Virus record (IMG/VR): IMGVR_UViG_2609459844_000001
Span: 1-14,560 of that record
Origin: a virus
Taxonomy: Duplodnaviria > Heunggongvirae > Uroviricota > Caudoviricetes
Strand: one strand, 5' to 3'
DNA: 14,560 nt
Shown: piece by piece, positions 1 to 14,560 of the stretch
Layout: every line of letters begins with the position of its first letter
Position numbering within the stretch: the stretch's first letter is position 1
Made by a program: the position numbers and the translations under genes
Notes under the pieces: generated by a model
The model's input: only the letters and a program-made list of their open reading frames with translations
Databases searched by the model: none
Told to the model about the DNA's origin: nothing

Positions 1-1
1 G

Positions 2-1450
2 AAGGCAGACCTGAGCAAAGGGCAGTACGGCTGTGTCGGCCAGGGCTTACATATTGCCAAAAAACTGCTCCCGTATATCCCGAATAACGCGGGGATCCTG
101 CTGGTACCATGCTGTCGTGGTGGTTCGGCATTCACCAAGGGCGCGGAGGGGACATTCAGTGCGGACGCGGGGGCCAGCCAGGATTCGGCACGCTGGGGTG
201 TGGGTAAACCGTTATATCAGGACCTGATTGCGCGCACTAAAGCTGCATTACAGAAGAACCCGAAAAATGTGTTGCTGGCGGTGTGCTGGATGCAGGGAGA
301 GTTTGACATGAACGCCGCCACCTACGCACAGCAACCTGCGCTGTTTACAGCCATGCTGAAGCAGTTTCGTGCTGACCTCACTGTGTTTAACGCGCAGTGT
401 CATGGTGGTAGTGCTGTAAATGTGCCGTGGATTTGTGGTGACACGACGTATTACTGGAAAAATACATACGCTACCCAGTACGACACCGTGTACGGCGGGT
501 ATAAAAACAGGGAGAGTGAGGGCGTTTATTTTGTGCCCTTCATGACAGACGGTAACGGCGTCAATACCGCCACTAACGCACCGGCAGAAGATCCGGATAT
601 TCCGGCATCAGGATATTACGGTGCGGCATCGAGAACGAATGGAAACCAGGTATCATCAAACCGCCCGACACATTTCAGTTCATGGGCGCGCAGGAGCATT
701 ATTCCGGATCGTATGGCAACCGCTATTCTGAACGCAGCCGGGCGCACCTCAGCTTTCATCAGTGGTAAGGCACCGGAAATCAAACCCTCGCCCGGCGGCA
801 ACACGCCATCGGGGCCGTCTGAAGATGCATCCGTACGCACAATCTCCCTGTTGCCGACAGCCGGAGAGGCTGCTGCGCAGGGCTGGACCATTAAGGACGG
901 CGGAATTCAGTTGTCGGGTGGTGTATTTAAGATCGCCAAGCAGAGCAATAAAACCTGGTCCCTGATGCATCCGGTGGATGACGCAGTCTCCCTGCTGACA
1001 CGGGGTGGCAGACTGAGCTGTAAGTTTCGACTGTCAGGCGCACTGACCAACAACCAGTTCGGCCTGGGAATTTATCTGTATACCGATGTAGCGTTACCTG
1101 ACGTCGTGGCGATGGCCGGGACTGGTAACCCGTTCCTGATGTCGTTCTTCACCCAGACCACAGACGGCAAACTGAATCTGATGCATCACAAGAAAGCAGG
1201 AAACACAAAGTTGGGCGAGTTCGGGAATTACAGTAATGACTGGCAGACGCTGGAACTGGTGTTCACCGCCGGCAGTGCCACGGTTACTCCGAAACTGAAT
1301 GGAGTGGCTGGCCCGGCATTCCAGGTCATAAAAGACAGTCTGACACTGGGGCTGAATGCGCTGACGCTGACGGATATTACCAAAAATGCAGCGTATGGCG
1401 TTGAGATAGAAAGTCTGGTGCTGGAGATAAATGCACCGGCATCATCATAA
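2..1450 (+). CDS. Sialate O-acetylesterase-like protein (NanS-p-like), C-terminal part; the 5' end lies upstream of the window
   Basis: Frame 2 is open from position 2 to the stop at 1448-1450 (I translated 2-200 by hand and found no stops). Contains a W-x-QGE-x-D motif (CWMQGEFD) typical of SASA/SGNH sialate O-acetylesterases. Sits immediately upstream of the holin, as nanS-p does in Stx-type lambdoid phages. Family assignment is from memory, not a search. Confidence 0.6.
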   Translation, partial: KADLSKGQYGCVGQGLHIAKKLLPYIPNNAGILLVPCCRGGSAFTKGAEGTFSADAGASQDSARWGVGKPLYQDLIARTKAALQKNPKNVLLAVCWMQGEFDMNAATYAQQPALFTAMLKQFRADLTVFNAQCHGGSAVNVPWICGDTTYYWKNTYATQYDTVYGGYKNRESEGVYFVPFMTDGNGVNTATNAPAEDPDIPASGYYGAASRTNGNQVSSNRPTHFSSWARRSIIPDRMATAILNAAGRTSAFISGKAPEIKPSPGGNTPSGPSEDASVRTISLLPTAGEAAAQGWTIKDGGIQLSGGVFKIAKQSNKTWSLMHPVDDAVSLLTRGGRLSCKFRLSGALTNNQFGLGIYLYTDVALPDVVAMAGTGNPFLMSFFTQTTDGKLNLMHHKKAGNTKLGEFGNYSNDWQTLELVFTAGSATVTPKLNGVAGPAFQVIKDSLTLGLNALTLTDITKNAAYGVEIESLVLEINAPASS

Positions 1451-1600
1451 AAAGTGAGCCAGTCAAATGGAAGGTATCGTTAAACTCACCGGTAGTGTCA
1501 GTGGGTCGTCTGAGATGCCTGCATGAGTTATCAGAGCCATCAGTACTTAACTGGTGGCTTTTTTTATTGTTGTCAGCTTCCGGATAACGGGAGACGGGGT

Positions 1601-1816
1601 ATGTACCAGATGGAAAAAATCACAACAGGTGTGTCATACACCACGTCAGCGGTGGGAACGGGCTACTGGTTCCTGCAGTTGCTGGACAGGGTTTCCCCGT
1701 CTCAGTGGGCGGCAATAGGCGTGCTGGGGAGTCTGCTGTTTGGGCTGCTGACATATCTGACTAACCTGTATTTCAAAATCAGAGAGGACCGTCGTAAGGC
1801 TGCACGGGGAGAGTAA
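1601..1816 (+). CDS. S: Class II holin (phage 21 S21-type pinholin), 71 aa, with dual-start motif
   Basis: Translation [71 protein letters not shown] closely resembles the S21 pinholin as I recall it (two TM segments, charged C-terminus). Two Met codons at 1601 and 1610 (M-Y-Q-M) give the antiholin/holin dual start; GGGAGACGGGG lies just upstream. The track ORF starts further up at 1523, but that N-terminal extension has no holin-like sequence. Confidence 0.85.
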
Positions 1817-1820
1817 TTCA

Positions 1821-2627
1821 ATGACTCAAAACTATGAACTGATTGTGAAAGGGATCCGCAATTTTGAGAATAAAGTTACGGTAACTTTAGCGTTACGGGA
1901 CAAAAAACGCTTTGACGGTGAAATTTTTGACCTGGACATCTCGCTGGACCGTGTTGAAGGTGCCGCGCTGGAGTTTTATGAGGCAGCAGCCAGAAGGAGC
2001 ATCAGACAGGTCTTCCTGGATGTTGCTGCCGGGTTATGTGAAGGGGATGAGCTGTCGCCGGAAAAGCGCCCCATAATTTTAGAGGCGCAGGATGTGTTGA
2101 TAACCTACAAAGGAAAGCTACCGGGAAGAATTACTGGTTCTCTGAAGATGCCGCCGTCAACACTGCGGTCAGAAAAAGAGGCGTCTTGTCTGCAGTCTGA
2201 GTACTCCATTACGGTTAAAAGTGCCGGAGAGGAAGGAAATAAACGTTATTTTATTGCGTCTGCACCTGATAAAGATCAGGAATGGGAGTGTAACCGGCCA
2301 TCCTTTGTTGTATACGGAGATGGCGGGAAAATAACCATCTCAGAAAATGGGAAATTAACACCGCCATCGCACCAGCATAGTGAGGCGCTCATTGAATTTG
2401 CCATTGATTACCTGAAGAACAATAAAAAGCAGGGGCTGATGAAGCGCATTGGTCGTTGCATGGGATATCTGCAGGTAGCAGCTGAGATTGAAATGATGGC
2501 CAGTGGTGCTGACAATGATGCAGTTGTGCTGGAGGCTCTTCTGCGTGATTTTGATAATACGCCCTTTAAGAAAGCACCTGTTGACTGGATGCAGCCGGGG
2601 ATGACTTATCTGAAAGGGCGTATATAA
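1821..2627 (+). CDS. Hypothetical protein, 268 aa, unknown function (moron inserted between holin and endolysin)
   Basis: Clean 268-codon ORF whose ATG is 4 nt after the holin stop, with a GGGGAGAG Shine-Dalgarno-like sequence inside the holin 3' end (suggests translational coupling). No TM segment or signal peptide by eye. Visibly more AT-rich than flanking phage genes. I recognise no family. Confidence 0.6.
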   Translation: MTQNYELIVKGIRNFENKVTVTLALRDKKRFDGEIFDLDISLDRVEGAALEFYEAAARRSIRQVFLDVAAGLCEGDELSPEKRPIILEAQDVLITYKGKLPGRITGSLKMPPSTLRSEKEASCLQSEYSITVKSAGEEGNKRYFIASAPDKDQEWECNRPSFVVYGDGGKITISENGKLTPPSHQHSEALIEFAIDYLKNNKKQGLMKRIGRCMGYLQVAAEIEMMASGADNDAVVLEALLRDFDNTPFKKAPVDWMQPGMTYLKGRI

Positions 2628-2636
2628 GGTGGCTCG

Positions 2637-2951
2637 TTATCTGTTGCTGGATAATCGACTGAAGATGCGTTCTTTTTGTGTTTTTGCGTAATGATTGTCC
2701 CACTCACAATCAAGGTAGCTTAATTCTTCATTCAACCAGTTATTTATATTGGTCTTAATACGCATAAGCATGGGCTGTGTTAATGCTCTGGCGATAATGC
2801 CGAGAGTCACAGGTGTGAGATGTCCATACGGCTCAGCCTGAATGGATTTTACTGCATCGTGTTCTTGTGGGAGGAGTAAGAGGCACTCTGATTTTACCCG
2901 CTCATTTATGGCTTGCAGGCATAAATCATAATTATGTTGATCGTTATGCAT
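2637..2951 (-). CDS. Hypothetical protein, 104 aa, convergent partner of the 268-aa ORF
   Basis: Minus-strand ORF of 104 codons whose stop is about 10 nt from the stop of the 268-aa gene. AT-rich; no recognisable motif. Filling the gap between two same-strand lysis genes on the opposite strand is typical of an acquired moron. Confidence 0.45.
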   Translation of the reverse strand: MHNDQHNYDLCLQAINERVKSECLLLLPQEHDAVKSIQAEPYGHLTPVTLGIIARALTQPMLMRIKTNINNWLNEELSYLDCEWDNHYAKTQKERIFSRLSSNR

Positions 2952-3079
2952 GGTTAATCCTCTACTGAAATTGTCAGATATATTTCAGCCATCAGGAAAA
3001 ACGCCAGTGTCCTACCGCTGGCGGGCTGAAGATTTAACATATCCAGGGATTCGGAACCGATAAATCCTGATAAATATCC

Positions 3080-3613
3080 ATGAACACCAAAATCAAATAT
3101 GGCCTGTCGGCTGCCGTTCTGGCGTTGATTGCCATCGGTGCGCCTGCGCCTGATATTCTCGACCAGTTTCTGGATGAAAAAGAAGGTAACCACACAACGG
3201 CATACCGTGATGGTGCGGGTATCTGGACCATCTGCCGCGGTGCCACAATGGTGGATGGTAAACCTGTTATTCCGGGCATGAAACTGTCGAAGGAAAAATG
3301 CGACCAGGTTAATGCCATTGAACGGGATAAGGCGCTGGCATGGGTGGAGCGCAATATTAAAGTTCCACTGACCGAACCACAGAAAGCGGGTATAGCGTCA
3401 TTCTGTCCCTATAACATTGGCCCCGGTAAGTGTTTCCCGTCGACGTTTTATAAGCGGCTGAATGCTGGTGACCGCAGGGGAGCGTGTGAGGCGATTCGCT
3501 GGTGGATTAAGGACGGTGGCAGAGACTGCCGTATTCGTTCAAACAACTGCTACGGTCAGGTATCCCGTCGTGACCAGGAGAGCGCGCTGGCGTGCTGGGG
3601 TATCGACAGATAA
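3080..3613 (+). CDS. R: SAR endolysin (phage 21 R21-type lysozyme, T4-lysozyme-like fold)
   Basis: 177 aa. N-terminal Gly/Ala-rich weakly hydrophobic stretch (GLSAAVLALIAIGAPAP) consistent with a signal-anchor-release domain, then an E-x8-D-x5-T catalytic triad (E..GNHTTAYRD..GAGIWT) as in T4 lysozyme-type muramidases. Confidence 0.9.
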   Translation: MNTKIKYGLSAAVLALIAIGAPAPDILDQFLDEKEGNHTTAYRDGAGIWTICRGATMVDGKPVIPGMKLSKEKCDQVNAIERDKALAWVERNIKVPLTEPQKAGIASFCPYNIGPGKCFPSTFYKRLNAGDRRGACEAIRWWIKDGGRDCRIRSNNCYGQVSRRDQESALACWGIDR

Positions 3614-3701
3614 GCAGAATATTTTGCTGAAAAATAAGGCATGGCCACGCGGGCGGATAACACGAAATCCTGCGAACTGGCGAAACGTAAGTGAATAAAA
3701 G

Positions 3702-3745
3702 TAAAAACCCCGTTTGTTGGCAGCAAGCGGGGTTTTGTTTTTATG
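3702..3745 (+). terminator. Putative rho-independent terminator just after the endolysin gene
   Basis: AAAACCCCG ... CGGGGTTTT inverted repeat followed by TTTTGTTTTT on the + strand. The loop is long (about 15 nt), so stability is uncertain. Confidence 0.4.
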
Positions 3746-3807
3746 GCAGTAAGCTATGGGAGGCTGCCTTGATTGATTTTAGCAAACTGATTAGGGAGTT
3801 GCGACTC

Positions 3808-3903
3808 ATGATTAGTCAATTACCAAACTGGAAATTTTTGCTGGTCTGGAGCATCCCTTTTTTATGGGTAGTATCCCAGTTAATTGTGGCAATTAAGGGG
3901 TAG
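3808..3903 (+). CDS. Small hydrophobic peptide, 31 aa (speculative)
   Basis: ATG at 3808 preceded by AGGGAG at 9-nt spacing; translation MISQLPNWKFLLVWSIPFLWVVSQLIVAIKG is a single predicted TM helix. Too short to be confident. Confidence 0.2.
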   Translation: MISQLPNWKFLLVWSIPFLWVVSQLIVAIKG

Positions 3904-3905
3904 CT

Positions 3906-4037
3906 ATGTCAGACAAACTCATAACGCCGGCAAAGGTCCTGTGTGTGATTGTCGGTATTTCATTTTCACTAATGCTGGTTGCTCTTTTTCTGTCCCTCGC
4001 CTGGGTGATGTTGTCTTCGTCGGGGCTGCTGGGGTGA
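3906..4037 (+). CDS. Small membrane peptide, 43 aa (speculative); TM segment resembles the Rz N-terminal TM
   Basis: ATG at 3906 preceded by AAGGGG; translation MSDKLITPAKVLCVIVGISFSLMLVALFLSLAWVMLSSSGLLG. The KVLCVIVGISFSLMLVA stretch resembles [16 protein letters not shown] at the Rz N-terminus (4256). Confidence 0.3.
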   Translation: MSDKLITPAKVLCVIVGISFSLMLVALFLSLAWVMLSSSGLLG

Positions 4038-4156
4038 CAGTGACTGATGACATCAGCAGAGCGCTGGCTTTTGCTATTAAGTGGGTGGCTGTTGGTATTG
4101 CTGTGTCTCCGATGCTATATGGGCTGGCAAAACTGGTCATTGCGCTGAAATCGTGA
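4034..4156 (+). CDS. Small hydrophobic peptide, about 40 aa from a GTG start (speculative); paralogous to the next peptide
   Basis: Translation VTVTDDISRALAFAIKWVAVGIAVSPMLYGLAKLVIALKS. Shares the motif R-A-[LM]-A-F-A-I-[KR]-x-V-A-[VI] with the peptide at 4168-4254. Start codon uncertain. Confidence 0.25.
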   Translation: MTVTDDISRALAFAIKWVAVGIAVSPMLYGLAKLVIALKS

Positions 4157-4167
4157 ACTTTAAAAAG

Positions 4168-4254
4168 ATGAGTGCTGAACTTATTCGGGCAATGGCATTT
4201 GCCATTCGTATTGTGGCCATTGCTGTTCTGGTCTGGGCAATCCGTTGGTGGTGA
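4168..4254 (+). CDS. Small hydrophobic peptide, 28 aa (speculative); paralogous to the preceding peptide
   Basis: ATG at 4168; translation [28 protein letters not shown]. Ends 1 nt before the Rz start. Weak RBS. Confidence 0.25.
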
Positions 4255-4255
4255 T

Positions 4256-4723
4256 ATGAACCGTGTTCTGTGTGTGGTGATTATTGTCATGCTGGTGGCC
4301 TGTGGTGCGCTTAGTCTGGGGCTGAATCATTACCGTGATAACGCCATTACCTACAAAGCCCAGCGCGACAAAAATGTCAGAGAACTGAAGCTGGCGAACG
4401 CGGCAATTACTGACATGCAGATGCGTCAGCGTGATGTTGCTGCGCTCGATGCAAAATACTCGAGGGAATTAGCCGATGCGAGAGCTGAAAATGAAACTCT
4501 TCGCGCTGACGTTGCCGCTGGTCGTAAGCGCCTGCGTATCAACGCCACCTGTCCAGGTCCCGTGCGTGAAGCCACCGGCACCGCCCGCGTGGATAATGCA
4601 ACCGGCCCCCGACTGGCAGACACCGCTGAACGGGATTATTTCACCCTCAGAGAGCGGCTGATGACGATGCACAAGCAACTGGAAGGGGCGCAGGAATATA
4701 TCCGTACTCAGTGCCTGAAATAA
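4256..4723 (+). CDS. Rz: Spanin inner-membrane subunit (i-spanin)
   Basis: 155 aa from the ATG at 4256: N-terminal TM ([21 protein letters not shown]), then a charged coiled-coil-like periplasmic region ([26 protein letters not shown]). Embedded Rz1 in the +1 frame. Track ORF 4172-4723 is the same frame with a non-native N-terminal extension. Confidence 0.85.
4491..4661 (+). CDS. Rz1: Spanin outer-membrane lipoprotein subunit (o-spanin), embedded in Rz
   Basis: [15 protein letters not shown] lipoprotein signal with lipobox V-S-A-C, followed by a proline-rich mature region ([18 protein letters not shown]). Entirely inside Rz in a different frame, the classic Rz/Rz1 arrangement. Confidence 0.8.
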
Positions 4724-5073
4724 GTTTTGTTGATGCGCCGTATCGTCGCTGTATTCCCTCATTAACAGAGACCGCAGCCCGACAGGGAGACTCCTCTGCG
4801 CGAGTGTGCGGGGATAATCAAAAACGATACACACCGGGGTTTACCGCGTTAACGGAGCGCGGCGTTGTCCCCTCATAGTCGCCTGTCCGGTGCGATGGTG
4901 GAAGAAGCCGGATGTTTATCACTATTAATTGATGACACAGAAATGGATTCATTGAATTTCAGCACGTTTTTGTATTCGTGTTATTGAACATCTGTTTATT
5001 TTACTTTTAACATATTGATAATAAAAAGAGCTGTAAATCTTTAGATGAGTCGATTTTGTCCGGGGAAGTTCAA

Positions 5074-5214
5074 ATGGATTTTATGCTGACGGTTTCTGGT
5101 GTGGTTATCCTGTCCATTGCTTATACTGCAGATAAATATGGCTGCCATTTGTTATCACGTATTGGCGCTTATTGTTCGTTGATGCTGATTTTCTCGTCGC
5201 TTTTTTTTGAGTAA
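5074..5214 (+). CDS. Small hydrophobic peptide, 46 aa (speculative)
   Basis: ATG at 5074 preceded by GGGGAAG; translation MDFMLTVSGVVILSIAYTADKYGCHLLSRIGAYCSLMLIFSSLFFE. Lies in a strongly AT-rich spacer. Hand-translated; not in the supplied track. Confidence 0.2.
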   Translation: MDFMLTVSGVVILSIAYTADKYGCHLLSRIGAYCSLMLIFSSLFFE

Positions 5215-5346
5215 GTTATATTAATTATAACAAATAATTTTCTGTGTTATTTTTTCAGGCTATCCCGTCAGAGGGGAAGCCTGTACTGCCAGGGAGCGAA
5301 TGGAAAACTGATGTGTCCGGTAACTGCGTGTTCTGTGAACACCATG

Positions 5347-5532
5347 TTACTTAATTATGTAATTCATACCCGAACTCTCTGTTGACAGCCTTCTTCTGCA
5401 GGCTTCAATAACCCACGCTGAAAAGTTTCCTGAACCTTTCAGATCAAGAGCGATGTTAATTTGTTCAATCATCTGGTTTGGAAATCGGATGTTGCGGGTT
5501 GTTGTTCTGCGGGTTCTGTTCTTTGATGACAT
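5347..5532 (-). CDS. Small Arc/MetJ-like (ribbon-helix-helix) protein, probably DUF3950 family (YlcI/YnfO-like), 61 aa
   Basis: Translation ...TRNIRFPNQMIEQINIALDLKGSGNFSAWVIEACRRRL... has a basic N-terminus, a short beta-strand (NIRFP) and two helices, which is an RHH-like pattern. A similar small gene sits next to cos/terminase on the opposite strand in E. coli lambdoid prophages (recollection, not searched). Confidence 0.5.
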   Translation of the reverse strand: MSSKNRTRRTTTRNIRFPNQMIEQINIALDLKGSGNFSAWVIEACRRRLSTESSGMNYIIK

Positions 5533-5699
5533 AATGTTTCCCCATATTCAGTGTTGCTGATTTGTATTATCAGAAGTTGCTTTTACGTTAATTTGACGCA
5601 GATCAATTAATACGATACCTGCGTCATAATTGATTATTTCTCGTGGTTTGATGGCGTACACACATGTTGTGATAAACCTTATATAGATGATAATAATTA

Positions 5700-5920
5700 T
5701 CATTTCGTGGGTCCTTTCCGGCGATCCGACCGGTTACGGGGCGGCGACCTCGCGGGTTTTCGCTATTTATGAAAATTTTCCGGTTTAAGGCGTTTCCGTT
5801 CTTCTTCGTCATAACTTAATGTTTTTATTTAAAATACCCTCTGAAAAGAAAGGAAACGACAGGTGCTGAAAACGGGCTTTTTGGCCTCTGTCGTTTCCTT
5901 TCTCTGTTTTTGTCCGTGGA
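5700..5920. other. cos: Lambda-type cohesive end site (cosQ-cosN-cosB); 12-nt cohesive end GGGCGGCGACCT at 5738-5749
   Basis: 5738-5749 reads GGGCGGCGACCT, followed by CGCGGGTTTTCGCTATTTATGAAAATTTTCCGG..., which matches the left end of the lambda genome as I remember it. 5711-5737 (GTCCTTTCCGGCGATCCGAC.GGTTACG) matches the lambda right end (cosQ side). cosB R-element repeats include a 15-bp perfect inverted repeat, GAAAGGAAACGACAG at about 5850-5864 and CTGTCGTTTCCTTTC at about 5890-5904. Confidence 0.85.
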
Positions 5921-5927
5921 ATGAACA

Positions 5928-5990
5928 ATGGAAGTCAACAAAAAGCAGCTGGCTGACATTTTCGGCGCGAGTATGGGCGCTGGCCAATGA
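5928..5990 (+). pseudogene. nu1: Terminase small subunit nu1, 5' stub only (16 native codons, then a deletion junction and a stop)
   Basis: ATGGAAGTCAACAAAAAGCAGCTGGCTGACATTTTCGG.GCGAGTAT matches the lambda nu1 start (MEVNKKQLADIFGAS); similarity ends at about 5975 and the frame stops at 5988-5990. Confidence 0.7.
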
Positions 5991-5991
5991 C

Positions 5992-6696
5992 ATGAACTGC
6001 AGCGCAGGTCAGCTGCTTGCCAGTGCCGCCTCCCGGCGTCTGGTCACGCAGACCGCCCGGACAGGCTCCATCGGCGTCAAGGGCAAATACACCATGACCG
6101 GTGAAGCCTTCGATCCGGTTGAGGTGGATATGGGCCGCAGTGCGGCGAACAACATCACGCAGTCCGGCGGCACGGAGTGGAGCAAGCGTGACAAGTCCAC
6201 GTATGACCCGACCGACGATATCGAAGCCTACGCGCTGAACGCCAGCGGCGTGGTGAATATCATTGTGTTTGACCCGAAAGGCTGGGCGCTGTTCCGTTCC
6301 TTCAAAGCCGTCAGGGAGAAGCTGGATACCCGTCGCGGCTCTCATTCCGAACTGGAGACAGCGGTGAAAGACCTGGGCAAAGCGGTGTCTTATAAGGGAA
6401 TGTATGGCGATGTGGCCATCGTCGTGTATTCCGGACAGTACGTGGAAAACGGCGTCAAAAAGAACTTCCTGCCGGACAACACGATGGTGCTGGGTAACAC
6501 TCATGCACGCGGTCTGCGCACCTATGGCTGCATTCAGGATGCGGATGCACAGCGCGAAGGCATTAACGCCTCTGCCCGTTACCCGAAAAACTGGGTGACC
6601 ACCGGCGATCCGGCGCGTGAGTTCACCATGATTCAGTCAGCACCGCTGATGCTGCTGGCTGACCCTGATGAGTTCGTTTCCGTACAACTGGCGTAA
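5992..6696 (+). pseudogene. E: Major capsid protein E, N-terminally truncated (lambda-like sequence from about 6079 to the native stop)
   Basis: From KGKYTMTGEAFDPVEVDMGRS to the C-terminal ...LMLLADPDEFVSVQLA the translation is near-identical to the lambda gpE C-terminal region as I recall it. The sequence upstream of about 6079 is not E-like, and the stub of nu1 lies just upstream in another frame. Track ORF 5863-6696 is the same frame from a GTG. Confidence 0.8.
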
Positions 6697-6737
6697 TCGT
6701 GGCCCTTCTGGGCCATTGTTTCTCTGTGGAGGAGTCC

Positions 6738-7133
6738 ATGACGAAAGATGAACTGATTGCCCGTCTCCGCTCGCTGGGTGAACAACTGAACCGTGATATC
6801 AGCCTGACGGGGACGAAAGAAGAACTGGCGCTCCGTGTGGCAGAGCTGGAAGAAGAGCTTGATGACACGGGCGACACTGCCGGTCAGGATACCCCTCTCA
6901 GCCCGGAAAATGTGCTGACCGGACATGAAAATGAGGTTGTATCAGCGCAGCCGGATACCGTGACTGATACGGCTGATCTGGTCACGGTTGTGGCACTGGT
7001 GACGCTGCATACTGATGCACTTCACGCCACGCGGGATGAGGCTGTGGCATTTGTGCTGCCGGGAACGGCGTTCCGTGTCTCTGCCGGTGTGGCAGCTGAA
7101 ATGACAGAGCGCGGCCTGGCCAGAATGCAATAA
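6738..7133 (+). CDS. FI: DNA-packaging / head assembly protein FI
   Basis: MTKDELIARLRSLGEQLNRD...ERGLARMQ is near-identical to lambda gpFI; 41-nt gap after E, as in lambda. The track ORF starts 13 codons upstream at 6699. Confidence 0.9.
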   Translation: MTKDELIARLRSLGEQLNRDISLTGTKEELALRVAELEEELDDTGDTAGQDTPLSPENVLTGHENEVVSAQPDTVTDTADLVTVVALVTLHTDALHATRDEAVAFVLPGTAFRVSAGVAAEMTERGLARMQ

Positions 7134-7144
7134 CGGGAGGCGCT

Positions 7145-7498
7145 GTGGCTGATTTCGATAACCTGTTCGATGCTGCCATTGCCCGCGCCGATGAAACGAT
7201 ACGCGGGTACATGGGAACGTCAGCCACCATTACATCCGGTGAGCAGTCCGGTGCTGTGATACGTGGTGTTTTTGATGACCCTGAAAATATCAGCTATGCC
7301 GGACAGGGCGTGCGCGTTGAAGGCTCCAGCCCGTCCCTGTTTGTCCGGACTGATGATGTGCGGCAGCTGCGGCGCGGCGACACGCTGACCATCGGTGAGG
7401 AAAACTTCTGGATAGACCGGATTTCGCCGGATGATGGCGGAAGCTGTCATCTCTGGCTTGGGCGGGGCGTACCGCCTGCCGTTAACCGTCGCCGCTGA
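7145..7498 (+). CDS. FII: Head-tail joining protein FII
   Basis: MADFDNLFDAAIARADETIRGYMG...GRGVPPAVNRRR is near-identical to lambda gpFII (117 aa). Confidence 0.9.
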   Translation: MADFDNLFDAAIARADETIRGYMGTSATITSGEQSGAVIRGVFDDPENISYAGQGVRVEGSSPSLFVRTDDVRQLRRGDTLTIGEENFWIDRISPDDGGSCHLWLGRGVPPAVNRRR

Positions 7499-9095
7499 AA
7501 GGGGGATGTATGGCCATAAAAGGTCTTGAGCAGGCCGTTGAAAACCTCAGCCGTATCAGCAGAACGGCGGTGCCCGGTGCCGCCGCAATGGCCATTACCC
7601 GATCATTCGCATTGTCATTCGCTGCTTTAACTGCCTTCGGTGTCGCGGCAAGCGTTTCAGACGTACTGTTTGTCGCACTGCTGAGCTGTACTATCCCCTT
7701 TTTCGTCGTGCTCGCATCCTCAAGCGCCACGGCGGATGCAATATCCTCTGCCCGTTTTGCCGCTGTCTCAGCGCGCGTTGCTGCGGATTCTGCCGTACTT
7801 TTGCTCTGTGCTGCCGCTGTCGCACTGCCAGCAGCCTCTGTCGCCTTTGTGGATGCCGTCGTGGCGCTGCTCTTCGCTGCTGACGCCTGTCTGGTCGCCT
7901 CATCTTTTGAAGCAGACGCCGATGATGCCGATGACGCCGCCGAACTGGCGGACGATGCCGCTGCCGTTTTTGAGGATTCTGCGCTGGTTTCCGACGCTTT
8001 CGCGTTCGTTTCGGATGTCTTCGCTGAGGAAGCAGACCTCGCTGCTGCGCTGGCCTGTTCAGTGGCTTCGCCAGTCTTCGTTGTGGCTGTTGAAGCGGAT
8101 GATGCGGCGCTTTCTGCCGATTTTCCGGCGGCGGTGGCACTGACTGAGGCCTGCCCGGCACTTGTTGATGCGGCACTGGCGGACGACGCAGCCGCTGTTT
8201 TTGAATCTGCCGCAGCTGAGGCACTCTGTCCCGCTGCCGTTTCAGAAGACCTGGCGTTCGTCTCGGACGTTTTGGCCGCCTTCGCAGAATTTGCTGTCGC
8301 CGTTGCCGAGGAAGCTGCGCTGCTGGCGCTCGAGGCTGCGCTCGTTTCTGATGATTTTGCCGCCTCTTTTGAAGCCGACGCATCCCGGGCTGAGGTGGCA
8401 GCTTCTGACGCTTTCGTGGTCGCGGTGGATGCAGAAGTGGCTGCTGATTGTTGTGACGCTGCGGCATTCGTTTCTGACGTTTTCGCCGCAGCGGCACTGG
8501 TGGCCGCCGCGCTTTTTGAGGACTCTGCAGCGGCAGCACTTTTTTCCGCTTCAGTGGCCTTTGTTGATGCCGTTTCTGCGCTGGAAGACGCTGACTGAGC
8601 CGACGACGCGGCCTGTCCGGCTGACGTGCTGGCTGCGCGTGCTGAGCCTGCAGCATCAGTCGCATGGGTTGCCGCCTCACGGGCTGATGTGCTGGCATCG
8701 CCGGCTGACTTCTTCGCGGCTGCCGTGTTCTGTGCCACTGCGGACGCGTTACGCTCCACCTCTTCCACCATCACTTCAAAACGGCGCAGTGCCTCCGGTC
8801 GGACATCATCCTCCGTCATGGCACCGAGAAAATCATTCAGCGTACCTGGTCTGGAACCTTCATAGACGGTAATGGTCCCGGCATGTGAAGGCGGAAAACC
8901 TTCAACCAGCAGGGTGACGCTGTACTGACCATGCTCAACATCCATGCTGTAACGTCCGGCTTCATCCGGATTTTCAGAGGCCACCGTGTTCACCACCACC
9001 GTGCTGCTGGTTCGTCTGGCCTTCAGCACAATGGTGCAGTTCTGTACTGGTTTTCCTGTGCCATCTTTAAGCACGCCAGAAATTTTTACTGTCAT
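7482..9095 (-). CDS. stf: Side tail fiber protein (lambda Stf / prophage StfR-like), N-terminal about 510 aa; 3' end replaced by junction sequence
   Basis: N-terminus MTVKISGVLKDGTGKPVQNCTIVLKARRTSSTVVVNTVASENPDEAGRYSMDVEHGQYSVTLLVEGFPPSHAGTITVYEGSRPGTLNDFL and the following Ala/Ser/Thr-rich repeat region match lambdoid side tail fibers. The last about 30 codons (VMAIAAAPGTAVLL...) are the reverse translation of the Z fragment and FII 3' end, so the distal receptor-binding portion is missing. Confidence 0.8.
   Translation of the reverse strand: MTVKISGVLKDGTGKPVQNCTIVLKARRTSSTVVVNTVASENPDEAGRYSMDVEHGQYSVTLLVEGFPPSHAGTITVYEGSRPGTLNDFLGAMTEDDVRPEALRRFEVMVEEVERNASAVAQNTAAAKKSAGDASTSAREAATHATDAAGSARAASTSAGQAASSAQSASSSAETASTKATEAEKSAAAAESSKSAAATSAAAAKTSETNAAASQQSAATSASTATTKASEAATSARDASASKEAAKSSETSAASSASSAASSATATANSAKAAKTSETNARSSETAAGQSASAAADSKTAAASSASAASTSAGQASVSATAAGKSAESAASSASTATTKTGEATEQASAAARSASSAKTSETNAKASETSAESSKTAAASSASSAASSASSASASKDEATRQASAAKSSATTASTKATEAAGSATAAAQSKSTAESAATRAETAAKRAEDIASAVALEDASTTKKGIVQLSSATNSTSETLAATPKAVKAANDNANDRVMAIAAAPGTAVLLIRLRFSTACSRPFMAIHPPFSGDG
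7510..7597 (+). pseudogene. Z: Tail protein Z, 5' fragment (first 29 codons) ending at a rearrangement junction
   Basis: ATGGCCATAAAAGGTCTTGAGCAGGCCGTTGAAAACCTCAGCCGTATCAGC...GCAATGGCCATTA matches the lambda Z start (MAIKGLEQAVENLSRIS), 11 nt after FII as in lambda. Similarity stops at about 7597, where minus-strand tail-fibre coding sequence begins. Confidence 0.75.
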
Positions 9096-9107
9096 ACTTT
9101 TCCACCA

Positions 9108-9142
9108 ATAAAAAAAGCCCGCAGCAGTGACGCCACGGGCTT
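9108..9142 (-). terminator. Putative rho-independent terminator downstream of lom (minus strand)
   Basis: GCCCG ... CGGGC hairpin (9118-9141) preceded on the + strand by an 8-A run, which is a U-tract after the hairpin on the minus strand. Lies between the lom stop and the stf start. Confidence 0.4.
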
Positions 9143-9246
9143 CAGGACAGTGTAACTTTACGTTTCCTCAAACGCAGTTCACCCCATAAGGTGGATGAAC
9201 CTGCGTATCATAACAATATTTACAGAAGATAAATCGGCGTCTGTTG

Positions 9247-9846
9247 TCAGAAACGGTATCCGATACCAACAATAAATGCATCCGTTCGCCAGTCGCCACT
9301 ACCGGAACCTTCATAAGCAAGGTCAATGGTCACGGATTCGGTCGGATTAAACTGCACGCCAGCCCCCCACGCCAGAGACGTGTTGCTGTGGCGACCGTCA
9401 TCACTTCCGGTCAGCACATCGTGCGTTTTCCCCTTGTTGTCAGTTACGCGGAGATAATCCCCGGAGAAAGTCGAAATACGGCTGTAAGCCACACCCGCCA
9501 TCGCATACGCGCTGAACCATTCATTCACGCGCACAGACGGCCCCGCCATTACGCTGAACCAGCGGTTACGAACGGAATCTTCATGCCAGCGGGTATCGCT
9601 GTAACGGGTCAGCTGGCGATTCTTGTCTCCTGCATAGCTGAATGACGTCACCAGCCCCAGTGTGTCCGTAAACTCATAACGGTATTTCACGTTAATCCCG
9701 TTCAGATCATCACTGCCGGGGACGTTCGTCGAGGCATGAAGATACCCCGCGCTCAGCGTGGACTGATGTTCAGACGCCCATGCAGGCGCACCGGATACGG
9801 CCAGACAAATGGCTGCGGACAAAATTGCTGCACAAACTTTACGCAT
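9247..9846 (-). CDS. lom: Outer membrane protein Lom (Ail/Lom family beta-barrel)
   Basis: 199 aa with signal peptide (MRKVCAAILSAAICLAVSGAPAWA) and C-terminal ...DLAYEGSGSGDWRTDAFIVGIGYRF matching lambda Lom. Position between J and stf as in lambda. Confidence 0.85.
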   Translation of the reverse strand: MRKVCAAILSAAICLAVSGAPAWASEHQSTLSAGYLHASTNVPGSDDLNGINVKYRYEFTDTLGLVTSFSYAGDKNRQLTRYSDTRWHEDSVRNRWFSVMAGPSVRVNEWFSAYAMAGVAYSRISTFSGDYLRVTDNKGKTHDVLTGSDDGRHSNTSLAWGAGVQFNPTESVTIDLAYEGSGSGDWRTDAFIVGIGYRF

Positions 9847-9867
9847 AATTACCTCTCGCTTTTCTGC

Positions 9868-9896
9868 AATAAAAAAGGCGTCACTCCTGACGCCCT
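9868..9896 (-). terminator. Putative rho-independent terminator between J and lom (minus strand)
   Basis: GGCGTCA-CTCC-TGACGCC, a 7-bp perfect stem with a 4-nt loop, flanked by an A-run on one side and a T-rich run on the other. Confidence 0.4.
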
Positions 9897-9916
9897 TTAT
9901 TGGGGTTATAAATATT

Positions 9917-11072
9917 TCAACGAATACTGATGCCGGAAGCGGCTTTTTTGGTCACAATCACCGTACAGTCGGTGATATTGCCTGCCCCCTGATTGCCTTT
10001 CTGGAAAATCTTAAACTCCAGAGTGACGCTACCACCACCACTAGGCATATCAATAACTGCACTGTAACTACCGGGAATGGCCCCTTTAGTTTCTCTGGAT
10101 GCGATTAATACGCCGTTTTTGCGAACTTCAAAACCATAACCCGTGTATCGCGTGCCTCCTGGGTTATTTCCGCTCCCCGGATCGTCATACGCTATACCGT
10201 TAAAAATAATGGGCGGAATAATAATCTGGCGGTCAAAGTTATGATCATCGCTGATGGTGACTGTAACCGTACCGTTTGGTGTTTCCGTGTTACCCCACGT
10301 ACCGACTTTTTTCGGGAAGGCTTTTGATACAGCTTTAACGAAATCCCCTCTGACCTGGGTCGCCTCCAGCATGCCCTTAATCGTACAGTTCTGGTTAATC
10401 TTGACATTGTTGAGCGTTCCTGAGTTCGCATTCACACTGCCACTGATATCCGCATTTTTAGCGGTCAGCTTTCCGTCTGATGTCAGGGAAAATACCGGAG
10501 GACTGCCACCGCTGGTAATGGTGGGGGCCGTCAGGCGCTTCAGGAACACGTCGTTCATGAATATCTGGTTGCCCTGCGCCACAAACATCGGCGTTTCATT
10601 CCCGTTTGCCGGGTCAATAAACGCGATACGGTTAGCGGCAACCAGAAACTGGCTCAGCTTGCCTTCCTCCGTGTCCTCCATTCCTGTCACCCTTTGAGGT
10701 GTTTTCCACCAGTGCCTGTACACCGAAGGTAAAGCGCAGACGGTCGATGTTTGCAGACGTAATGGTGCGGGTGATCGGCGTGTCATATTTCACTTCCGTA
10801 CCCAGCACCGTCTCGGAGCCGGAGGATTCAAACCCCTCCGGCGGTGTCTGCTCCTGCTCACCGGCACGGAACACCACCGTGACACCGGAGATGTTGGTAT
10901 TCCCCTCAGTGTCCAGCACCGGCGTACTGTTCAGCAGCACGCTTTTTAATCCATCCACCGGACCTTCAACCGGCCCTTCGCTGATGGCATCGATCACACT
11001 CAGCAACTGCGTGGACTTCAGGTTGTCCTTCGCTTCGCGCGGGGTATGCCCCTTACTGCTTCCTTTACCCAT
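9917..11072 (-). pseudogene. J: Tail tip / host specificity protein J with a large internal deletion and frameshift
   Basis: ORF 10632-11072 (MGKGSSKGHTPREAKDNLKSTQLLSVIDAISEGPVEGPVDGLK...TSKGDRN) matches the J N-terminus for about 131 aa and then runs out of frame. ORF 9917-10786 matches the J C-terminal receptor-binding region from [29 protein letters not shown]... to the end. The two homology blocks abut at about 10680 in different frames. Confidence 0.8.
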
Positions 11073-11132
11073 TCCTCACGCTCCATAAATGACAAAACCG
11101 CCCGCAGGCGGTTTCACATAAAACATTTTGCA

Positions 11133-11804
11133 TCAGCGACCAATCACCACAACCTGACCACCGTCCCCTTCGTCTGCCGTGCTGATCTCCTGAGAAACCA
11201 CGCGTGACCCCACGCGCATTTCCCCGTACAGAACGGGCAGAACATTGCCCTGGGCAACCATATTATCCAGCGAAGAAAAATAGGTGTTCTGTTTGCCGTT
11301 ATCTGTTGCCTGTGTGCGGGGAGTTCTGGCTTTCGGTGCCAGCATCTGCGCCACACCACCGAGCACCATACTGGCACCGAGAGAAAACAGGATGCCGGTC
11401 ATCCCACCGGCCCCAATGGCTGCCCCCCATGCTGCAAGGGTGACTCCGGCGGTAAAGAATGATCCGGCAATGGCGGCAGCCCCCAGGACAATCTGGAATA
11501 CGCCACCTGACTTGGCCCCGGCGACTCTGGGAACAATATGAATCACAGCGCCATCAGGCAGAGTCTCATGTAACTGCGCCGTTAACCCGGACGTGCTGAC
11601 GTCCCGCCCGGCAATCCGTACCTGATACCAGCCGTCGCTCAGTTTCTGACGAAACGCCGGGAGCTGTGTGGCCAGTGCGCGGATGGCTTCAGCCCCCGTT
11701 TTCACACGAAGGTCGATGCGGCGGCCAAATCGTTGCAAATCCCCGTAAAGGCAGATGCGCGCCATGCCCGGTGACGCCAGAGGGAGTGTGTGCGTCGCTG
11801 CCAT
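11133..11804 (-). CDS. I: Tail tip assembly protein I
   Basis: 223 aa, MAATHTLPLASPGMARICLYGDLQRFGRRIDLRVKTG..., near-identical to lambda gpI; overlaps K by 103 nt and is followed by a 60-nt gap before J, both as in lambda. Confidence 0.9.
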   Translation of the reverse strand: MAATHTLPLASPGMARICLYGDLQRFGRRIDLRVKTGAEAIRALATQLPAFRQKLSDGWYQVRIAGRDVSTSGLTAQLHETLPDGAVIHIVPRVAGAKSGGVFQIVLGAAAIAGSFFTAGVTLAAWGAAIGAGGMTGILFSLGASMVLGGVAQMLAPKARTPRTQATDNGKQNTYFSSLDNMVAQGNVLPVLYGEMRVGSRVVSQEISTADEGDGGQVVVIGR

Positions 11805-12445
11805 TTGTCGGTGTACCTCTCTCGTTTGCTCAGTTGTTCAGGAATATGGTGCAGCAGCTCGCCGTCGCCGCAGTAAATGGCGGCGTGATTCGGCACCGAT
11901 GAACCAAAACAGCACAGCAGCACATCGCCCGGCTGTGCCGCTGACAACGGCACCTGATACAGCCCCGTCGCCTCCAGATTATCCAGATAGAGATTCTGAC
12001 CGTGACGCCACCAGTCATCCTCACGATGAAAGTCCGGCATCTCAATCCCCGCCAGATGATAAGCATCCCGGAACAGTGTGTAACAGTCCGTCACACCGTG
12101 CTCAAAGCGCCGCCCGGTGAGATGCGGCACACAGCGGAACTTATGAATCGTCCCCCGGCAGACCAGCCACCACGGCAAATCACTCTGCACCTGCAGCCGC
12201 CGGTCGGCCTCACTCAGCCAGGGCAGACCACCGGGGTGGCTGTGGACCAGCGCCACAATCTCACCCTGCATTTCTGCCTGCAGCCAGTCTTCCGGCGACA
12301 TACGGAAATACGCCTCCGGCTCACCGGAAATATTCATGCAGGGAAAATATCTTTCCCCCTCCGGCGTTCTCACCACGAAGCCGCACGACTCCGCTGGCGC
12401 ACATCGCCGGGCGTGCGCCAGAATCGCTGATTCTGTCTCTGTCAT
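11702..12445 (-). CDS. K: Tail tip assembly protein K (MPN/JAMM plus NlpC/P60 domains)
   Basis: Contains the JAMM motif H-S-H-x7-S-x2-D (ALVHSHPGGLPWLSEAD) and a C-terminal Cys/His region. The ORF from the ATG at 12445 (MTETESAILAHARR...) is 247 aa. The classical lambda annotation begins 48 codons later (MSPEDW..., at 12301, 199 aa); I prefer the longer start because the MPN fold needs the upstream residues. Confidence 0.85.
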   Translation of the reverse strand: MTETESAILAHARRCAPAESCGFVVRTPEGERYFPCMNISGEPEAYFRMSPEDWLQAEMQGEIVALVHSHPGGLPWLSEADRRLQVQSDLPWWLVCRGTIHKFRCVPHLTGRRFEHGVTDCYTLFRDAYHLAGIEMPDFHREDDWWRHGQNLYLDNLEATGLYQVPLSAAQPGDVLLCCFGSSVPNHAAIYCGDGELLHHIPEQLSKRERYTDKWQRRTHSLWRHRAWRASAFTGICNDLAAASTFV

Positions 12446-12449
12446 GGGA

Positions 12450-13148
12450 TTACTGCGAAAGTTTGTTAATGGAAAGGAAGCCGCCAAAGTTGCCGACGTT
12501 ATTGCGGAACTTACAGCCACCCAGGCATTTGCTGCATTTATCCTTCGTGATATCGGACGTCGGCTGGTCATATTCATCCGCGACAGCCGGACCGCTATAA
12601 CCGCACTCGTCACCGCGATAGGTCCAGGTGCAGGTGTTGGCCAGCATGATACGTCCCGGAAAAACAGCGCCATCCGTTTCCGTCGGCGTGGACAGTACAA
12701 AGGAGGCACTCACCGCGCTCAGTTCGCTGCACTGCTCGATGCGCCAGCGGCTGATCACCTCCTGCTCCGGATCGGCGTCACTGTTTCCGTTGACGAAGTT
12801 CACCGCATCCAGAAAACGGGCGTAAACCTTACGCCGGACCACCGTTCCGCCGACCAGACTCTGCAGATCTTCCGCCATCCCGGTGACCATACCGTACAGG
12901 TTAGAAACCGTCAGCGTGGGGCGCGTACTGGTGCCTTTGCCATTCAGTTCAAAACCGCTCCCCTGAATGGGATACGGCTGATACTGTCGCCCCTGCCAGG
13001 TGACCGGCTCACCTTTTTCGTTCTGCTCATTACAGAAAAAATAACGTTCTCCACCGACCTCTGTCAGGTCGATTTCCCAGAGCACCACGCTGGCCGACTG
13101 CTCCGCACGGGTGCATTCATTCAGTGTTTCCTGCCGGATATCCTGCAT
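12450..13148 (-). CDS. L: Minor tail protein L
   Basis: 232 aa, [72 protein letters not shown]..., matching lambda gpL; 1-nt overlap with M as in lambda. Confidence 0.9.
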   Translation of the reverse strand: MQDIRQETLNECTRAEQSASVVLWEIDLTEVGGERYFFCNEQNEKGEPVTWQGRQYQPYPIQGSGFELNGKGTSTRPTLTVSNLYGMVTGMAEDLQSLVGGTVVRRKVYARFLDAVNFVNGNSDADPEQEVISRWRIEQCSELSAVSASFVLSTPTETDGAVFPGRIMLANTCTWTYRGDECGYSGPAVADEYDQPTSDITKDKCSKCLGGCKFRNNVGNFGGFLSINKLSQ

Positions 13149-13477
13149 CAGTTCACCACCTGTTCAAACTCTGCGCTGAACTCAACACGCAGCATACTGA
13201 CCCGCGACGACCATTTTGCGCAGGTCACCTTTATCTGCCGCCACTCATAAGGCGGCGTCCACAGAAAGGATTTCCAGCCCCCGTGCTCTTCCAGAAACGA
13301 CTCCAGTACCGTGGCCTCCTCACGGGGGACAGAAAGCGTCACGCTGTACGTTTTCAGGTTGGCATTCAGCCCGGCAGGCGCTCGCTGGGAATAGCCATCA
13401 CCAAAGCGCACCTTTCTTACAGAAGGGGCCGAAGCCACATCCATACCGGGTTTCACTTTCCAGCGGAAGGTTTTCAT
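13148..13477 (-). CDS. M: Minor tail protein M
   Basis: 109 aa, [50 protein letters not shown]..., matching lambda gpM. Confidence 0.9.
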
Positions 13478-13815
13478 CGTCCACCTCCGGAGAACAGGCC
13501 ACCATCACGCATCTGTGTCTGAATTTCATCACGGGCACCCTTGCGGGCCATGTCATACACCGCCTTCAGAGCAGCCGGACCTATCTGCCCGTTCGTGCCG
13601 TCGTTGTTAATCACCACATGGTTATTCTGCTCAAACGTCCCGGACGCCTGCGACCGGCTGTCAGCCAGACTGCCCGGTGTCAGGTCTTTAACTTTAGCCA
13701 GACGCGACCAGTCAACGTCTGAAAGCGGGTTCGCATAAGGGTCGCCGCTCCCGTTATAAACCCACAGGGTGGTTCCGGCACCTTTCACCGGTATTGCTGG
13801 ATTTGGTACAGGCAT
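13474..13815 (-). CDS. Chimeric in-frame fusion: major tail protein V N-terminus (about 48 aa) joined to the tape measure protein H C-terminus (about 65 aa)
   Basis: From the ATG at 13815, [48 protein letters not shown] matches the lambda gpV N-terminus and then diverges. The ORF ends with an ATGA overlap onto M, exactly as the lambda H/M junction does, so the 3' part is taken to be the H 3' end. U-to-V spacing (7 nt) is lambda-like. The deletion removed most of V, all of G/T and most of H. Junction at about 13665-13675. Confidence 0.7.
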
Positions 13816-13822
13816 ATCGTCC

Positions 13823-14218
13823 TCACATTTCATAGGTAATGACATAAGTCAGATCGGCAGAACTCCACAGGCCCGCATCATCGTCGCGCCGGTAGTCATA
13901 GCCGCTGGCCACCATACTGGTGATCAAATCTGACAGTGCCGGGACATCGCTCATCACCGGATAAATCCGGGACTCCATCCACGAATCCAGCTCTGAATCC
14001 GGCACCTGAGCAGGCAGGAAAACTTCAATATGCAGCTCCGCCTGCCAGGTATCACTGTCCAGCTCTTCGCCCGTGTATTCAGCGCCGGTGAGATAAACGG
14101 CAATTGCCGGAAAATCCGCCTCATCAAAAACAGCGGGGCGACCATCAAAAAGCGTCGCCCCGGTGTCATGCTTCTCCAGTGCATCCAGTACGGCTGCACG
14201 GAGTTCAGTATGTTTCAT
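13823..14218 (-). CDS. U: Tail tube terminator protein U
   Basis: 131 aa, [67 protein letters not shown]..., near-identical to lambda gpU. Confidence 0.9.
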
Positions 14219-14560
14219 CGCTTTATTACCATTCTCAGTTGATGCTGCAGCGCATAGCCCAGCTCTTTCGGAAGACGTTCACGCCGTATCCGTTCAATAT
14301 TCTGTTTAAACGCCGTGGTAAGCGGCACCGCCATCGGGATTTTCACCACATCAATGGGGTAACGGTTTTTCCCGGCCACACGCTGCATGACATGCCACCG
14401 GCCATTTTTCAGTTGCTGAATAAACGCGCCGGGAATACGACGGTTTCCCACCACAAGCACGCTGCCGCCACCTTTCAGGGATGAACGCTGCCCCTTTTTA
14501 CGACGTCTGCGGCGGGAAAGGACAACCCGCGCGTTACCCAGCTTGATTACGGGCAAATCC
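14215..14560 (-). CDS. Z: Tail protein Z, 3' portion (partial; the ORF continues past the window end towards its 5' side)
   Basis: Minus-strand translation ...[112 protein letters not shown] matches the lambda gpZ C-terminal two-thirds; 4-nt overlap with U as in lambda. Confidence 0.8.
   Translation of the reverse strand, partial: DLPVIKLGNARVVLSRRRRRKKGQRSSLKGGGSVLVVGNRRIPGAFIQQLKNGRWHVMQRVAGKNRYPIDVVKIPMAVPLTTAFKQNIERIRRERLPKELGYALQHQLRMVIKR

Follow-up and report, generated by a model that had tools for sequence, protein, structure and literature searches.

In this stretch of E. coli DNA the J gene of a lambdoid prophage is found in two pieces, which raises the question of whether the C-terminal piece, in which a receptor-binding region is still open, serves as a free receptor-binding protein or is what a deletion left behind. 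The window, by which we mean the whole stretch analysed, is the complete 14,560-bp draft contig JNPF01000030.1 from the commensal E. coli strain 2-156-04_S3_C1 (assembly GCA_000703525.1). The strain name fits the isolate naming of a gut-commensal study of Tanzanian children, in which 100-bp Illumina reads were assembled with MaSuRCA 2.3.2 (PMC6222053). Judged from its sequence, this J is likely to be an ordinary pseudogene that arose by illegitimate recombination in a decaying lambdoid prophage, and not a new receptor-binding protein.

The J gene is split into two blocks in different frames

The J homologue, which encodes the tip attachment protein or central tail fibre, was located on the minus strand in the gene order I-J-lom-stf. 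The following features were found:

10680-11072, minus strand: N-terminal block of J (codons 1-131), which keeps the native start codon and its Shine-Dalgarno site; ends within FNIII-A_GpJ
9917-10681, minus strand: J C-terminal block, codons 884-1137 and the stop codon, with a partial Phage_Tail_Tip and a complete Ig_GpJ_C domain, of the phage-434 type
10680-10681: deletion junction with a 2-nt microhomology, AT, present in both parental flanks
10632-10679, minus strand: out-of-frame tail of the J N-terminal fragment, 15 codons of the C block read in the wrong frame and then TAA
9917-10786, minus strand: chimeric 289-aa ORF, in which the C block is preceded by 35 codons from the J N block in the +1 frame

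An intact lambdoid prophage in E. coli AF39 (NZ_OZ547136.1, about 4.791-4.833 Mb), with a J gene of 3,414 nt encoding 1137 aa, served as the parental reference, and breakpoints, frames and identity to this parent were read directly from the alignments. By BLAST, positions 11072-10680 of the window corresponded to nt 1-393 of the AF39 J gene and positions 10681-9917 to nt 2650-3414, in both cases with 100% identity and 0 gaps. When the window was displayed base by base against both parental flanks, the two alignments overlapped by the 2 nt AT. Thus, J nt 394-2651 were absent, amounting to 2,258 nt or about 66% of the gene (752 of 1137 codons). Because 2,258 is not a multiple of three (2,258 mod 3 = 2), the frame of the C block is +1 with respect to that of the N block. 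The first-pass annotation had proposed that an N-terminal part of about 131 aa and a C-terminal part of about 250 aa remain, out of frame, that they meet within a few nucleotides of 10680, and that the central two-thirds or so of J is deleted. Its coordinates, sizes and frames were all accurate, and the alignment to the AF39 J placed the junction at 10680/10681. It had also suggested a search for microhomology at the junction, where the 2 nt described above were found.

Translation of the two remaining ORFs gave 146 aa for 10632-11072(-), consisting of 131 J residues followed by 15 out-of-frame residues and a stop, and 289 aa for 9917-10786(-). Within the latter, the native J C-terminus of 254 aa starts at MEDTEEGK with the ATG at 10681. 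In place of one continuous J ORF of about 1130 aa from start to stop there were two ORFs in different frames, and since the frames are discontinuous, no functional J can be made. With residues 132-883, J has lost the remainder of FNIII-A, the Phage-tail_3 hub, the two Ig/FNIII domains and the upper end of the fibre. Both breakpoints fell inside Pfam domains, namely FNIII-A_GpJ (residues 86-207) and Phage_Tail_Tip (residues 845-972). In the Pfam search of the window only profile positions 3-49 of 126 of FNIII-A_GpJ were matched, and Phage-tail_3, Ig_J, Ig_J_second and a complete FNIII-A, all found in the AF39 J, were gone. The C-terminal Ig_GpJ_C domain (residues 1001-1136) was intact, with profile positions 1-134 of 135 matched at E = 6.5e-26, and the C block matched the solved gpJ structures 8xcj and 8iyk.

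A comparison with known J proteins showed that the N block is 98% identical to residues 1-131 of lambda J and the C block 58% identical to its residues 884-1132. The C block is closer to J of phage 434, with 98% identity to residues 884-1137; the 249 identical residues out of 254 in OL657226.1 J identify it as a host-range J of the 434 type. In contrast to both lambda and 434 gpJ, the J in the window is without residues 132-883 and its frames are broken.

The two blocks could in principle be a naturally short J homologue, or a J with continuous frames masked by a sequencing indel. The adjacency of the two ORFs, and nothing more, speaks for such a reading, which we regard as practically impossible. 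It was excluded by the gap-free alignments to the intact AF39 parent, which is 100% identical on either side and carries 2,258 nt in between. The alignments were gap-free around the junction, the breakpoint positions by themselves account for the frame offset, and each breakpoint interrupts a Pfam domain. By inspection, no slippery or +1 frameshift motif was seen at the junction. A programmed ribosomal frameshift, which would have to be in the +1 direction, was likewise rejected, as inspection of AAAGGGTGACAGGAATGGAGG revealed neither a known +1 motif nor an in-frame X_XXY_YYZ heptamer. The 146-aa stub joined a large cluster of J N-terminal fragments, but among the cluster members that were read back its frameshifted tail occurred only in protein KDW03371.1 of this strain. 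With a near-identical intact orthologue in AF39 and a disrupting lesion in the local copy, the J gene has the features of a pseudogene.

The surrounding prophage has lost the genes for particle assembly

Five junctions were found in the contig, at Nu1|C, C|E, Z|stf (an inversion), J and H|V. They correspond to four deletions (about 4.6, 1.55, 2.26 and 3.8 kb) and one inversion relative to AF39, and divide the window as follows:

1-5974, plus strand: esterase, holin, lysozyme, Rz, cos and the first 47 nt of Nu1; right junction at 5971-5974, GTAT
5971-6079: 109-nt island of the C protease gene; right junction at 6077-6079, TCA
6077-7597: E', FI, FII and Z nt 1-88; right junction at 7596-7597, with a strand switch
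7596-10681, genes on the minus strand: stf codons 1-500, lom and the J C block; right junction at 10680-10681, AT
10680-13680: J N block, I, K, L, M and the last 206 nt of H; right junction at 13679-13680, GT
13679-14560: V', U and Z from nt 234, up to the contig end

Within these segments, the following features outside J were noted:

5739-5750, plus strand: cosN 12-mer GGGCGGCGACCT, kept though the terminase is gone
5928-6696, plus strand: Nu1'-C island-E', with 47 nt of Nu1, 109 nt of C (S49 protease) and E from nt 407
7596-9095, minus strand: stf', a side tail fibre gene reduced to its first 500 codons by the cut at the inversion junction 7596-7597
9247-9846, minus strand: lom, Ail/Lom outer-membrane protein, intact
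9877-9894: GC-rich hairpin between the J stop codon and lom, flanked by T-runs on both strands
11133-13477, minus strand: the tail-tip genes I, K, L and M, intact and 100% identical to AF39
13474-13815, minus strand: V'::H' in-frame fusion of 113 aa, junction at 13679-13680 (GT)

The retained segments showed about 99.96% nucleotide identity to the AF39 prophage and the same gene content and order where present. AF39 differed in having none of the five junctions and a full 1137-aa J. Over the whole contig there were five true SNPs relative to AF39, all in stf or lom, and 0 SNPs in the remaining sequence of about 12.5 kb.

The junctions around Nu1', C and E' removed A, W, B, most of C, D and the 5' part of E. 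At 7596-7597, stf' adjoins Z nt 1-88 on the opposite strand, and about 3.8 kb was gone at V'::H', including most of V, all of G and T, and most of H. In sum, Nu1, A, W, B, C, D, E, Z, V, G, T, H and stf were deleted or truncated, which took away the terminase, the portal, the scaffold, most of the capsid gene, the tail tube and its chaperones, and nearly all of the tape measure. With this gene content the prophage could not assemble particles. Two of the deletions led to in-frame fusions (C'::E' and V'::H') and two were out of frame, and this 2:2 split is the expectation for random events. The hairpin at 9877-9894 looks like the J-lom terminator, and the annotation of phage 434 has a terminator in the same place. 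An Rfam scan of the window gave nothing at threshold.

All five junctions carry short microhomologies and are private to one assembly

Perfect microhomologies of 4, 3, 2 and 2 nt were found at the four junctions other than J. The chance of at least 2 nt of overlap is 0.156 for a random join and about 9e-5 for all five. No repeats were found at the breakpoints in the window, where the only repeats were the fibre repeats of stf, an inverted repeat in the cosB region and a weak 22-nt inverted pair (1551-1572 and 9103-9124). The junctions thus show a few shared bases, with no long repeat, mobile element (such as an IS element) or recombinase site, which fits microhomology-mediated illegitimate recombination. 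Candidate pathways for such joins are RecBCD- and ligase-dependent alternative end-joining after a double-strand break, and replication slippage or template switching. Here we infer that either end-joining after a break or template switching during replication may have been at work, and that the events may have been sequential or simultaneous.

We propose that a 2,258-bp internal deletion in J would have arisen by microhomology-mediated illegitimate joining at AT, linking codons 131 and 884 in different frames. The native J start would then yield the 146-aa stub, and the C-terminal 254 codons would remain merely as untranslated sequence or as an accidental ORF. The four deletions and the inversion, with 2-4 nt of microhomology each, would together have disabled packaging, head, tail-tube and tail-tip functions in a prophage otherwise near-identical to an intact one, as expected for ordinary prophage decay.

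All five junctions were found only in this assembly. A 40-mer across the J junction gave 0 matches in genome_contigs, metagenome_contigs and viral_contigs, and a screen of 5,426 complete E. coli genomes gave none of the five junctions. Four complete genomes with an apparent J junction were rejected, as they carry a different J pseudogene with its pieces 890 bp apart. Among about 15 billion proteins, the four ORFs that jointly span all five junctions occurred in this strain only, and three of the four formed singleton clusters at 90% identity.

One observation speaks against ordinary decay: if the prophage had decayed step by step, a ratio as high as five private rearrangements to 0 SNPs over about 12.5 kb would be unusual.

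Related remnants show comparable decay with independent breakpoints

A widespread remnant located next to potAB-pepT-phoQ resembles the prophage in the window in that it belongs to the same phage lineage, has multiple internal deletions and has kept the J 3' end, lom and stf. It was found in 24 independent contigs from isolates and metagenomes, and it carries the exact Lom protein of the window. Its three deletions have overlaps of 2-3 nt. It differs from the window in its breakpoints, V nt 335 | J nt 2258 and Nu1 nt 71 | Z nt 234, in the absence of an inversion, and in the loss of H'-M-L-K-I and of the J N block.

Rac-like remnants contain the same 254-aa MEDTEEGK ORF followed by lom and stf, with J kept from nt 2633, only 17 nt away from the breakpoint in the window. 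Their junction is nevertheless independent, since J is joined to non-J sequence just downstream of a remnant of the tail-assembly gene T, and the chromosomal context is different (pinR, ynaE). Because the two breakpoints are so close, a hotspot caused by a hairpin or other secondary structure was tested and rejected; the predicted DNA folds at the J breakpoints were no better than those of shuffled sequences, with z between -0.2 and +0.5. The Rac prophage of K-12 itself contains no J fragment. Its ynaA was considered as an equivalent of the J fragment and discarded, because it shows no similarity and is a fragment of the tape measure.

Another type of J', the FORC 064 type in four complete genomes, consists of nt 1-644, a 62-nt island (nt 985-1046) and nt 2476-2957, and thus has two internal deletions. 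In E. coli remnants it is common for J to carry internal deletions, for short islands to lie between deletions and for the J 3' end to survive, and comparable multi-deletion decay is real and heritable elsewhere.

An assembly artefact is unlikely to explain the junctions

The contig is a short-read MaSuRCA draft, and each of its junctions comes from this single assembly. The segment 7596-10681, with stf', lom and the J C block, spans exactly from junction to junction and was 100.000% identical over its 3,086 nt to the potAB-side remnant. Furthermore, the contig end at 14560 is the exact point where the Nu1'|Z junction of this remnant parts from the AF39 type. From the identity to the remnant and the end of the contig at the point of divergence, the strain probably carries a second copy of 7596-10681. 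The long-range path of the contig is less certain than its local junctions, since it passes through sequence that would be present twice. At the other end, a comparison of the SASA repeat of the remnant with the contig start showed that position 1 of the window falls midway in 559 nt of identical sequence, away from the boundary.

These observations may suggest that the cell carries an intact AF39-type prophage and a separate remnant, and that the contig is a false path between them or was built from chimeric library fragments. The draft status, the restriction of every junction to this one assembly and the involvement of repeats, where a co-occurring remnant matches stf', lom and the J C block exactly and the contig stops at the Nu1'|Z junction of that remnant, are all consistent with such an artefact, which we nonetheless judge to be quite unlikely. 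To our knowledge, k-mer and overlap assemblers cannot invent adjacencies that share only 2-4 nt; spanning reads are needed. Thus, reads would have to span each junction, five in a single contig, and a microhomology of 2 nt or more would not be seen at every one of five chimeras formed by random ligation (P about 9e-5). In addition, junctions of the same style in remnants have been confirmed by many independent assemblies, including complete genomes. An illegitimately recombined J in a decaying prophage is the explanation that we prefer.

The C-terminal fragment is open but has no signals for expression

The first-pass annotation had also suggested that the C-terminal region, with a new upstream Met at 10786, could be expressed as a stand-alone receptor-binding fragment. 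The part of this claim that concerns the reading frame was borne out: the receptor-binding region survives as an open ORF with Ig_GpJ_C intact. Stand-alone expression found no support, with no promoter-like site, a weak Shine-Dalgarno site and an orientation antisense to late transcription. The 289-aa ORF was created incidentally by the deletion: its ATG at 10786 is out of frame in the J N block and opens just a 52-aa ORF in the intact J, whereas in the window this frame happens to continue into that of the C block. The Shine-Dalgarno pairing was -4.2 kcal/mol at ATG 10786 and -4.8 kcal/mol at the native internal ATG 10681, where an AGGA is placed directly before the start codon, compared to -6.8 for J, -7.1 for lom and -9.3 kcal/mol for I as real starts. 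The spacing was poor at both candidate starts of the C fragment. A simple consensus scan of the minus strand from 9700 to 11900 gave no sigma-70-like site. By these simple consensus scans, the C fragment is without the promoter and ribosome-binding site of its own by which a moron is recognized. Both candidate starts (10786 and 10681) are located within the 146-aa N-fragment ORF, in another frame, and that ORF would be translated from the native J start. Through the inversion, the tail block is also antisense to the direction of transcription from the lysis and head side, which we take to be the late operon in lambdoid phages.

The receptor of phage 434 J is presumably OmpC. The 35-aa extension of the chimeric ORF showed no signal peptide or lipobox and was not hydrophobic, and because this N-terminus has no signal-peptide character, a cytoplasmic product could not reach the surface loops of OmpC. 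The fragment also begins inside the fibre-prism domain Phage_Tail_Tip and is without the helical shaft. A known C-terminal J fragment with fibre prism and receptor-binding domain is the recombinant gpJ713 (lambda J 713-1132; PDB 8XCJ/8XCK), which alone binds LamB with nM affinity (PMC11101478). In contrast to the fragment in the window, which starts inside the prism, gpJ713 is engineered, starts 171 residues earlier and contains FNIII-2 and the helical shaft.

Taken as a functional proposal, the C-terminal 254-289 aa could be a free receptor-binding protein of the 434 type, kept by selection, for instance for receptor block or another host function. The open ORF with its intact Ig_GpJ_C, the nM affinity of the isolated lambda fragment and the retention of J 3' ends, with breakpoints at nt 2258, 2633 and 2650 in three remnant types independent of each other, are in line with this proposal. 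We consider it very improbable in view of the absent promoter-like site, the weak or misplaced Shine-Dalgarno sites, the two starts buried in an ORF that would be translated in another frame, the inverted tail block, the N-terminus unlike a signal peptide, and the start within the prism with the shaft missing. Moreover, the allele was limited to one isolate, so there is no sign of selection on it, and J has been lost entirely from K-12 Rac. A C fragment capable of receptor binding is conceivable, but nothing in the sequence indicates that it is produced.

As a pseudogene, this J would have little weight for phage biology, being a dead gene in a dead prophage, with the apparent receptor-binding ORF an accident of the deletion. 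The locus is instead a clean, base-resolved case of lambdoid prophage decay in a natural gut E. coli, with deletions at short microhomologies, one inversion and nearly no point mutations.

The junctions may have arisen stepwise or in one event

The same junctions could also have formed all five at once in one complex event, either by serial template switching of the MMBIR/FoSTeS type or by repair of a shattered, abortively induced prophage, and a co-resident remnant may have been one of the templates. A single event is compatible with five private junctions being spread over about 27 kb of the reference prophage when SNPs number only 0-5, with the uniform microhomologies of 2-4 nt, the 109-nt island between two junctions and the single strand switch, and with the segment bounded by the junctions at 7596 and 10681 that is 100% identical to another element. 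Yet one inversion and four simple deletions explain the pattern equally well, and old inherited remnants also show short islands and multiple deletions. Since more than 1 kb separates the patch of SNPs in lom and stf from either junction, these alleles may already have been present in the parent. No intermediates by which the events could be ordered were at hand. A common origin of all five junctions is thus a possibility that we hold to be doubtful. If it were true, the contig would provide a natural case of complex replication-based rearrangement in bacteria.

A more specific version is that the J junction is one scar of a catastrophic, MMBIR- or chromothripsis-like event, perhaps during in-place replication after abortive induction and possibly with stf, lom and the J 3' end derived from a co-resident remnant. 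Serial template switches or end-joining guided by microhomology would then have produced the four deletions, the inversion and the 109-nt island together. We find this version slightly more doubtful still. If it were correct, a chromothripsis- or MMBIR-like rearrangement would have been captured in a wild commensal E. coli.

Two points concern annotation. Strains with several related prophages yield contigs that run through repeats, and the path of such contigs needs care. The "fibronectin type III family protein" KDW03366.1 and the "putative host specificity protein J" KDW03371.1 are annotated separately, yet they are the halves of one broken gene.

The contig and its junctions

The window (1-14560) is the complete draft contig JNPF01000030.1 of E. 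coli 2-156-04_S3_C1. Four junctions were present in addition to that in J, each seen only in this assembly. With the intact prophage of E. coli AF39 as the reference, microhomology of 2-4 nt was found at all four.

Non-J junctions seen only in the JNPF01000030.1 assembly
5971-5974, junction
6077-6079, junction
7596-7597, junction of the inversion
13679-13680, junction

From junction to junction, the segment 7596-10681 (truncated side tail fibre gene stf', lom and the J C block) was 100.000% identical to the widespread defective remnant on the potAB-pepT-phoQ side (L015-L024), and the contig end at 14560 was the exact position of the Nu1'|Z junction of that remnant. E. coli 2-156-04_S3_C1 probably also harbours the potAB-side remnant, and part of the contig would therefore be a two-copy repeat. 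The true SNPs relative to AF39 were five, all within 9346-9489 (lom) and at 8626 (stf). Two of them altered Lom residues (A120/S and I124/V) and one altered Stf residue 157 (T/M). The lom and stf alleles of the window matched the potAB-side remnant exactly, which suggests either that they were patched in by recombination or that the parent had other alleles than AF39.

Open reading frames and cos region

Two ORFs run across junctions of the rearrangements.

ORFs across the junctions
5863-6696, + strand, C::E fusion ORF, 277 aa
7510-8598, + strand, Z-start ORF, 362 aa

In the fusion ORF, the reading frame continues from a 109-nt piece of C (S49 protease) into the capsid gene E, of which the final two-thirds are included; the ORF is labeled 'peptidase S49 family protein' in GenBank and formed a singleton protein cluster. 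The 362-aa ORF ran from the Z start codon over the inversion junction and then antisense along the repetitive stf' sequence, and is almost certainly a spurious product of the inversion.

Elements of the cos region and stf repeats
5739-5750, cosN 12-mer, exact lambda sequence
5847-5903, imperfect 26-nt inverted repeat in the cosB region
7939-8549, - strand, degenerate direct repeats in the N-terminal half of stf, spaced by multiples of 21 nt

Both cos elements lay directly upstream of the Nu1 start and were retained despite the loss of the terminase, with Nu1 reduced to 47 nt. The stf direct repeats look like fibre repeat units.

J remnants and a porin gene in other prophages

Rac-like remnants in other E. 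coli (L005-L010) kept J from nt 2633, with J homology beginning at 5984 in L006, and had the same 254-aa ORF as the window. Their breakpoint was 17 nt from that of the window at nt 2650. Neither a hairpin nor any other sign of a hotspot was detected to account for this closeness, which may be a coincidence (about 1%). A separate J pseudogene (L003 5809-6998) was shared by four complete genomes, among them that of E. coli FORC 064. It retained J nt 1-644 and nt 2476-2957 with a 62-nt island of J (nt 985-1046) between them, and is a second case of clustered internal deletions with a tiny island left.

In the intact AF39 prophage, an ompC-like porin gene adjoined the Q antiterminator (L001 27767-28849, outside the window), and the same prophage had a J with a 434-type host-range end. 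OmpC is the receptor of phage 434, and the porin gene carried by the AF39 prophage may be connected with receptor use.
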